From a virus: a stretch of DNA of 26,278 nt. Under the pieces are notes generated by a model, which saw only the letters and a program-made list of their open reading frames with translations, had not been told where the DNA came from and made no database searches. Location of the stretch: the UHGV virus genome UHGV-0200387, one strand, 5' to 3'. Below are positions 24,432-25,489 of the stretch, one piece after another. Every line of letters begins with the position of its first letter. The first letter of the stretch is position 1. Made by a program: the position numbers and the translations under genes.

Positions 24432-24660
24432 AGTCTCTAACCTCCGGCTTAAAAGCGGGGGCTGTGTGTTTAAAAGGGGTCAGGCCCTCGGGACGATTTA
24501 ACAAGTAGGCGTGTCGATGATGGTTCCCGTGAGCCTGAAATAGAAAGCCCCAGCAAATGCCTAGGCTAAATGAGGTGCCAGATCATATATCTGGCGGTAT
24601 AACCTTGCGTTTGGTATTATTAAATCGCCAAAAGTAACCCTTCAAACACAAGGCTTTAAA

Positions 24661-25191
24661 ATGACAAAAAGGAAGTACCGATTTTATCATGCGGACAGGG
24701 GTAACTTGCTGAGCCCTGACATGACAATAATCCCTGTAAATGGCCTCTCTTTATTTGGAGAGCATTATCTCTCCCGGATAAATAGTGGAAATATGAGCGA
24801 CGTGCTAGACGAAAATGTACAAAGAGAGATGCTGTATGAAAATGTGCGGATGGAAAATTTCCCATCCCGCCCAAGCCGATTCTCGTGCCTTTTTGGTGCG
24901 AACTCCATTCCTGAAGCGGAAAGCTTCGCCAGAAAGATAATCCCGCAACCTACCACCCCAATTAATATTTATGAAGTTTTTACTGAAAATTTTGTGGTTC
25001 TCGATATGAATTGGATGGATTACATAACAACAGATTTCGGTAGTAGGGTTGAATATGCCCGGCAGTACTGGTATTCATCAATTACCCAGCACGCCCCACT
25101 TACCGGCGATAGGATGATACCAACCCTGGAAGTCCTGCTGCCGCTTCCCGTGGAAGTAGGCAAGCAAGTCAGTACTGTCGCTTTTGATTAA
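24661..25191 (+). CDS. hypothetical 176-aa cytoplasmic protein, AT-rich cargo gene of unknown function
   Basis: ATG 24661 with AAGG 7 nt upstream. Opposite in orientation to the late operon. No signal peptide or TM segment and no motif I can assign. Codon usage and base composition differ by eye from the flanking phage genes. Confidence 0.6.
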   Translation: MTKRKYRFYHADRGNLLSPDMTIIPVNGLSLFGEHYLSRINSGNMSDVLDENVQREMLYENVRMENFPSRPSRFSCLFGANSIPEAESFARKIIPQPTTPINIYEVFTENFVVLDMNWMDYITTDFGSRVEYARQYWYSSITQHAPLTGDRMIPTLEVLLPLPVEVGKQVSTVAFD

Positions 25192-25360
25192 TCTGACAGT
25201 TCTGCTCAGGGAAATGGGCCAAAGGTTTATGTAAAGTCCAAAGCACTTCGGAAAGGATAGCTTTATATAGCTCACCATCATTTGCATGATAGCGAAACCT
25301 TTCAGAAGGTGAGATTTCGAAAAGTACCTTTCCCTCATCTGAAACAATTCGGACTTTCAT
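25169..25360 (-). CDS. hypothetical 63-aa protein, convergent with and overlapping the 176-aa gene by 23 nt
   Basis: ATG 25360 preceded by GGAGG (4-nt spacing). Hydrophilic, no recognisable motif. Confidence 0.5.
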   Translation of the reverse strand: MKVRIVSDEGKVLFEISPSERFRYHANDGELYKAILSEVLWTLHKPLAHFPEQNCQINQKRQY

Positions 25361-25489
25361 CTTTCCTCCAAATTAGAAGCTACTGATTCAGTTATTACTT
25401 ACTCCAGATACGACAAAGCCCCACCATTTCTGGCAGGGCTAGATTATTAAGCTGTGTGTCGAAGTGACCACTCTTAACACGTTAAACTA

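Follow-up and report, generated by a model that had tools for sequence, protein, structure and literature searches.

What is carried in the DNA between the late terminator tR' and the holin gene of the virus genome UHGV-0200387, and what could it do in the prophage? The stretch analysed (26,278 nucleotides (nt), hereafter the window) is a P22-like Escherichia coli prophage, and an initial annotation, made from the sequence alone, had described the interval as cargo composed of two convergent genes. Both open reading frames (ORFs) were found as described: ORF176 and ORF63, named after the numbers of amino acids (aa) that they encode, each begin with ATG and overlap by 23 nt at their 3' ends (Table 1). 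They are genuine genes forming one unit, conserved as proteins in nine sequence lineages in which they are always linked. ORF176 encodes a DUF2441 protein with an ADP-ribosyltransferase (ART) fold, and ORF63 encodes a small partner protein of an orphan family. Tentatively, and with rather less than even confidence, the pair is read here as a lysogen-expressed, NAD+-using effector that is neutralised by a partner made late, that is, as a toxin/antidote or defence/self-immunity module.

The assignment of ORF176 is based on family, profile and structural comparisons. Against the Pfam family DUF2441 (PF10386) the protein scored 33.6 bits (cutoff 25), only profile positions 48-91 being covered. A profile of 38 ORF176 homologs led to BC2332 of Bacillus cereus (PDB 2AUA; SCOP d.166.1.6) with an E value of 1e-11. 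The AlphaFold2 (AF2) model of ORF176 (pLDDT 94.8, pTM 0.88) has the same fold as 2AUA and contains the split beta-sheet ART core; when it was searched with Foldseek, 2AUA agreed, and LT and CT followed below significance. Across 167 family members R73 was found in 167, S72 in 165, E157 in 164 of 164, Y136 and W137 in 164 and D115 in 161; E56 and E60 were also essentially invariant. Of the 167 members, 122 have H10, which belongs to the strand-1 motif FYHADR, and 20 have Thr at this position; the motif may be compared with YRADSR of LT. The candidates for an H-Y-E or R-S-E triad are H10 (on strand 1), S72-R73 (preceding strand 2) and E157 (where strand 5 begins), by position in the fold and not by residue-level superposition. 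This conserved polar constellation suggests an active enzyme, and the best model of ORF176 is a cytoplasmic member of the ART superfamily with predicted enzymatic activity. The strand of the catalytic region starts at residue 6, and a signal peptide is absent; the initial annotation was right in this respect and wrong in that it recognised no motif in the protein.

The wider family agrees with this assignment. DUF2441 has been placed in the ART clan by Pfam (PMC7955679), 'BC2332-like' stands inside the ADP-ribosylation superfamily in SCOP (PMC3000352), and the BC2332 pocket was matched by ProFunc to the catalytic sites of diphtheria toxin, ExoA and cholix (PMC3024214). BC2332 shares the family with ORF176 and differs from it in sequence (22% identity), length (224 aa), its chromosomal location and the lack of a known partner. 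An exhaustive profile search (database size 1.84 billion) returned 655 cluster representatives at E <= 1e-3, only 21 of them at E <= 1e-30; the homologs of ORF176 are therefore a small prophage-borne subclade of a modest family. The match in PHROGs was to a family of unknown function only (phrog_5663). For ORF176 and ORF63 alike nothing was found in NCBIfam, and PADLOC-DB v2 gave no match at E <= 1. No function of DUF2441 is reported in the searchable literature, in which one Salmonella DUF2441 gene is merely listed as expressed. An apparent '120-aa truncated DUF2441' (P0002) was a gene-calling artefact, the frame being intact in L030.

For ORF63, relatives were absent from Pfam, PHROGs, PADLOC, NCBIfam and PDB, and direct searches retrieved near-identical copies only; matches of its profile to designed armadillo repeats in PDB were discarded as spurious 10-residue helices. 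Beside each DUF2441 homolog of the subclade stands a convergent ORF that begins with a shared pattern, M-K-V-x-I-[IV]-S-D-x-G-x-[VI]-[LV]-F ... L-x-x-A-[IV]-L-x-E-[AV]-[LI]-W, and ends in a variable tail. These homologs are 60-63 aa long (115 aa as called in L028), and the core residues G10, L36 and E38 are kept down to 24% identity. The ratio of non-synonymous to synonymous substitution rates (dN/dS) was 0.05-0.25 for close pairs in the ORF63 frame, against 0.5-3.1 in control frames. The window and Salmonella copies differ by five synonymous changes and one non-synonymous change (dN/dS 0.05), Erwinia and Hafnia gave 0.11, and the other pairs either gave 0.13-0.25 or were saturated at synonymous sites; the proportion of changed sites was 0.4-0.9 for synonymous (pS) and 0.01-0.44 for non-synonymous (pN) positions. 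On these sequence comparisons ORF63 is a real protein gene under purifying selection, and it shows every sign of translation. The possibility that it is no functional protein, the frame being a by-product of conserved regulatory DNA or RNA with DUF2441 as the sole cargo, could draw on the missing annotation by PGAP in E. coli MLI104K1 and on the lack of family matches. It is effectively excluded by the frame being open in every lineage examined, each time with a Shine-Dalgarno-like site, by the saturation of synonymous sites beside restrained amino-acid change, and by the kept core. Because the selection acts on the protein, ORF63 is unlikely to act as an RNA. A single-sequence AF2 model predicted two short strands (a beta-hairpin) and a helix (residues 29-44), and was poor (pLDDT 56).

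The linkage of the two genes was followed through the homologs, and a convergent, homologous partner overlapping the 3' end of the DUF2441 gene was found in all nine lineages. Identity to the window's DUF2441 protein was 93% in Salmonella, 59% in Erwinia tracheiphila, 58% in Hafnia, 56% in Serratia, 53% in an Enterobacter-like viral contig, 46% in Providencia, 40% in a Photorhabdus-like viral contig and 37% in a metagenomic lambdoid prophage. Most overlaps are of 23 nt, within a range of 18-44 nt; L028 stands apart with 176 nt. The position in the prophage varies: the cassette occupies the slot between the Q and holin genes in E. coli, Salmonella, Serratia, L021 and L028, stands among E217-type tail genes in Erwinia, and lies between the lysis genes and the small terminase gene in Providencia. 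Wherever late or structural neighbours were identified, the partner is co-oriented with them and the DUF2441 gene is antisense. An intact DUF2441 gene of the subclade without the partner was not found. A scan of viral contigs for the small gene gave seven contigs already known to carry DUF2441 and one new locus (L039:1403-2418, IMGVR_UViG_3300004634_000006), in which the partner is kept beside the last ~20 codons of the DUF2441 gene, the remainder being replaced by an unrelated 120-aa ORF before the holin gene; a 1-nt deletion alters the C-terminal tail of this partner. In type II toxin-antitoxin (TA) systems the antitoxin may stand alone and the toxin not, and this pattern is what the nine lineages and L039 present, in a small sample. 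ORF63 is probably the antidote of ORF176. A peptide-pattern scan of genome contigs yielded one locus only, the patterns being overly specific, and megablast and tblastn searches against 50,697 phage genomes gave no relevant match.

Beyond the subclade, the DUF2441 genes of L024 (Pseudomonas) and L029 are antisense morons within lambda-like tail-gene clusters. The L029 cluster (L029:2314-4216) also holds an Imm_superinfect (PF14373) gene and an NYN nuclease gene beside its partner-less DUF2441 gene, and another distant partner-less copy (L027:922-3516) has a gene for a 676-aa DUF4365-TPR protein directly upstream and co-directional; these neighbours are further candidates for exclusion or defence. 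Brevundimonas does have an 88-aa ORF convergent with its DUF2441 gene, but this ORF is no relative of ORF63. The cassette-bearing Serratia prophage encodes, downstream of its lysis genes (L010:2890-3171), a protein of the Acb2/Tad1-hairpin family, an anti-CBASS/anti-Thoeris sponge family.

The arrangement of the cassette relative to late transcription is as annotated initially: ORF63, with its GGAGG site 4 nt before the ATG, points with the late genes and ORF176 against them, the lysis genes being on the minus strand. From sequence conservation and folding, the cassette is predicted to be bracketed by two late-strand terminators (Table 1). The left hairpin and the neighbouring one fold as RNA with -21.1 kcal/mol (z -3.1), both are kept in six cassettes with three pairs preserved through two-sided changes, and the tail of the left hairpin is that of tR' in a phage with an empty slot. 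The neighbouring inverted repeat may be either a second late-strand 3'-end hairpin or an operator. Its stem is changed on both sides in Hafnia (CCGC..GCGG), while the partner proteins of Hafnia and Erwinia hardly differ; an RNA hairpin therefore fits better, and an operator for the ORF63 protein is disfavoured. Hairpins homologous to the right one are present in Salmonella and Hafnia. The tR' hairpin of the empty-slot prophage of E. coli 1218KP (AAGCCCGAGGTTAACGCCTTGGGCTT, L023:2606-2660) has the same sequence as the hairpin of the Salmonella cassette (L007:~940-990). Recombination at such terminator hairpins may therefore be the way in which the cassette is gained or lost.

For ORF176, an own promoter had been proposed. 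In six cassettes a TGnTAnnnT element precedes the DUF2441 ATG by 46-49 nt, and a seventh cassette has it at -65; this conservation supports expression independent of the late operon; transcribed from its own promoter against that operon, ORF176 could be produced in the lysogen. The sigma-70-like match found at 24661-24690 falls within ORF176 and was put down to chance. For ORF63, the T-run of the upstream hairpin ends 14-15 nt before the partner ATG in L028 and L010, so that the partner can have no promoter of its own in these two, and an own ORF63 promoter was rejected; between hairpin and ATG no conserved hexamers were found in the other lineages. ORF63 thus appears to be promoterless and to be expressed only when transcription passes the terminator upstream of it, a dependence that the initial annotation had not considered. 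The terminator scan gave no terminator between ORF176 and ORF63. Because the minus-strand terminator lies only beyond the 5' end of ORF176, late-strand transcripts are predicted to be antisense to the whole ORF176 mRNA; the antisense control proposed for the convergent pair would accordingly not be confined to the 23-nt overlap. Antisense transcription may still contribute beside the protein.

Table 1. Features of the convergent gene pair and its borders (window positions).
Feature	Position	Strand	Basis or remark
Left boundary terminator hairpin for late-strand transcripts	24546-24567	-	Terminator scan; U-rich tail 24538-24545
Inverted repeat GCCAGAT-N5-ATCTGGC, covering the -35 region of the putative ORF176 promoter	24577-24595	.	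Position kept in six cassettes
Putative extended -10 promoter TGGTATTAT (TGnTAnnnT) of the DUF2441 gene	24612-24620	+	Conservation
Shine-Dalgarno site of ORF176, AAGG	24650-24653	+	AAGG/AGGA at equal distance from the ATG in all close cassettes
ORF176, DUF2441/BC2332-like, ADP-ribosyltransferase fold	24661-25191	+	Pfam, profile and AF2 model
ORF63, small partner protein, orphan family	25169-25360	-	Convergent homolog in every lineage; dN/dS
Shine-Dalgarno site of ORF63, GGAGG	25365-25369	-	Read from the sequence; all homologs have similar G-rich sites upstream
Right boundary terminator hairpin, tR'-like, just upstream of ORF63	25417-25440	-	-17.4 kcal/mol, z -2.9; UUUGU tail
PR'-like promoter match TGGTCA-16-AATAAT, upstream of the hairpin, in the Q' remnant	25443-25470	-	Consensus scan only
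Second Q antiterminator fragment (Q'), C-terminal 58 aa	25521-25697	-	PF06530 positions 71-118 of 118

The favoured model builds on the gene pair and its strict linkage, on the fold and the conserved residues of ORF176, on the conserved noncoding elements and on the constant orientation. An extended -10 promoter of its own would drive ORF176 in the direction opposite to the late operon, and the effector would be made in the lysogen. The ART-fold protein would use NAD+ as a toxin or as an anti-phage effector, and ORF63, as its cognate partner, would physically bind and neutralise it. As the first frame after the tR'-like hairpin, ORF63 would be made at a low level by terminator leak and strongly under Q-antiterminated late transcription. 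The same late transcription would continue head-on through the whole of ORF176, on its antisense strand, as far as the left terminator and shut off effector synthesis; by this timing of expression the prophage would be protected from its effector while it goes through its own lytic cycle. That the cassette is a new prophage defence or exclusion cassette, in which a promoterless antidote is read only by antiterminated late transcription that also silences the ART-fold effector gene, is possible and is put forward with considerable doubt.

The toxin-like or defence-like role that had been suggested initially gains support from the ART fold, and other DUF2441 morons adjoin an Imm_superinfect gene and an NYN nuclease gene. 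Several observations weigh against the model. The convergent order is atypical of protein toxin-antitoxin pairs, and no PADLOC matches were obtained. A partner without an effector was seen at a single locus, L039. The distant DUF2441 genes (L024 of Pseudomonas, L029, Brevundimonas and Bacillus BC2332) have no such partner, and the enzyme therefore need not be intrinsically lethal. The single-sequence model of ORF63 is poor, and promoters and terminators were assigned from sequence conservation only. With respect to established types of toxin-antitoxin systems, the pair is not an operon of type II, since in each of the nine lineages the genes converge and overlap at their 3' ends, nor does it resemble type I, in which the antitoxin is an antisense RNA, for ORF63 evolves as a protein. 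A rival reading is an addiction-type TA module stabilising the prophage, in which both genes would be on in the lysogen, a labile ORF63 antitoxin, supplied by constitutive leak from PR' through the hairpin, keeping the ART-fold toxin inactive and the convergence merely tuning the ratio. Such a module is considered unlikely: the genes are not co-transcribed, there is no room for a promoter between terminator and ORF63 in two lineages, the cassette is missing from the PADLOC models, and the steady co-orientation of ORF63 with the late genes would be left unexplained.

A further rival is an anti-defence or host-takeover enzyme that would ADP-ribosylate a host protein or a host defence complex to the advantage of the phage, in the manner of AcrIF11 or T4 Alt/Mod, with ORF63 as a regulator or as an unrelated late protein; this is judged quite improbable. 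AcrIF11, a phage ADP-ribosyltransferase anti-CRISPR (PDB 6KYF), shares 19% identity with ORF176 over 74 residues, which is no sequence-level relationship. Anti-CRISPR (acr) genes pair with co-directional aca regulators of the helix-turn-helix type. Unlike such pairs, ORF176 has a convergent partner predicted to consist of a beta-hairpin and a helix. A lysogenic-conversion toxin directed against a eukaryotic host, such as the cholera and diphtheria toxins, ArtAB or the type III-secreted EspJ, with ORF63 as chaperone or regulator, is very improbable. Neither a signal peptide nor a B-subunit gene is present, and the strand from residue 6 leaves no space for an N-terminal secretion signal. There is also no bias towards pathogens, the close homologs being from Erwinia, Serratia, Hafnia and Providencia and the distant ones from Pseudomonas and Brevundimonas.

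Among known systems, the lysogen-expressed effector with a late antidote is closest in kind to the ART-toxin TA and defence systems ParST, MbcTA, Res-Xre (RES domain), DarTG and CmdTAC (PMC11618068), which belong to ART families different from that of ORF176. ORF63 is unrelated to their Xre, MbcA, macrodomain and SecB-type antitoxins; these systems are operons, whereas here the 3' ends overlap convergently and the partner gene stands inside the late transcription unit of the phage. By analogy, a logic may be shared with BstA-aba (PMC8585504) and with HepS of Gifsy-1 (PMC13043305), in which a prophage effector made in the lysogen has to leave the lytic cycle of that prophage unharmed. Immunity is conferred by a DNA sequence in BstA (PMC8585504) and by a non-triggering tail-tip variant in HepS (PMC13043305); unlike these, the immunity element proposed here would be a small protein combined with convergent late transcription. 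Lambdoid morons such as lambda bor, or stx in the slot between Q and S, are similar in being extra units between conserved genes, with deviant composition and their own promoter- and terminator-like elements, that are missing in siblings. They consist of a single gene, in contrast to the two convergent genes of the cassette, one of which is seemingly designed to be read by late transcription.

The surroundings of the pair support horizontally acquired cargo in the slot between tR' and holin, as had been proposed. The window encodes a P22 coat protein, P22 portal, gp3, large terminase and a tailspike with head-binding domain, and the prophage is integrated beside tRNA-Arg(CCT) (3023-3097) with the integrase gene adjoining. 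The late genes are on the minus strand: Rz (23115-23666), lysozyme (23663-24115) and a lambda-S-type holin (24090-24431, PF05106); the C-terminal part of the resident Q antiterminator is encoded at the right end, from ~25875 onwards. The GC content is 0.43-0.45 over 24500-25400 and 0.52-0.59 in the lysis genes, in agreement with the AT-rich character noted at the outset. The tR'-like hairpin is in place, and the 1218KP prophage, with a sibling lysis cassette, has a gap of 261 nt between Q and holin, that is, an empty slot. Because 1218KP matches the window almost exactly between the holin start and ~24545, the interval really is inserted cargo. The cassette thus has the features of a moron: an insert between conserved phage genes, missing in a relative, of deviant GC content and with its own predicted promoter and terminator signals.

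In E. coli the moving unit is a 1.35-kb block (24456-25800) that contains the cassette and a 3' fragment of a Q gene. Three other E. coli prophages, whose resident Q genes differ, carry it at 98.5-99.5% identity, and at >98% identity it was found in 2 of 5,426 complete E. coli genomes; identical copies of both proteins occur in E. coli assemblies. PGAP annotates the block as a 'DUF2441 domain-containing protein' and a Q pseudogene (the pseudogene call being from strain MLI104K1), the small ORF being left without annotation. The Q' fragment lies directly downstream of the resident Q and was co-transferred with the cassette behind at least three different resident Q genes; it is a footprint of recombination in the Q-tR' region. 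Between the resident Q and Q', a strong intrinsic terminator (GCCCG-N7-CGGGC followed by TTTTTTATTT; 25725-25741, minus strand) is probably the tR' of the resident Q, and late transcription would therefore pass at least three terminators before the holin gene.

Elsewhere in the window, an acyltransferase-3 frame (Oac-like O-antigen acetylase; 4704-5752, plus strand) lies between the integrase and tailspike genes and seems split into overlapping ORFs (4704-5396 and 5336-5752), possibly by a frameshift. The minus-strand region 22258-23082, between Rz and the small terminase gene, holds a DUF2560 protein (22258-22500) and a 95-aa ORF without a Pfam match (22795-23082), which may be further accessory genes.

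The module is new to PADLOC-DB v2, to the 50,697 phage genomes and to the searchable literature; the kinds to which its parts belong (ART-fold effector, small antidote, moron) are known. For DUF2441/BC2332-like proteins a structure has been available since 2005 and an ART site has been predicted, with no known biology. Through the cassette, one DUF2441 subclade gains a partner gene, a regulatory setting and a hypothesis that can be tested. If the favoured model is true, an ART family and an orphan antidote family would be added to the toxin-antitoxin and phage-defence repertoire. A harmful effector would be reconciled with induction in a new manner, by an antidote gene inside the late operon combined with convergent transcription. 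Self-immunity would then be hard-wired to the late-gene switch in a portable unit of ~0.9 kb, bracketed by terminators and found in E. coli and Salmonella.
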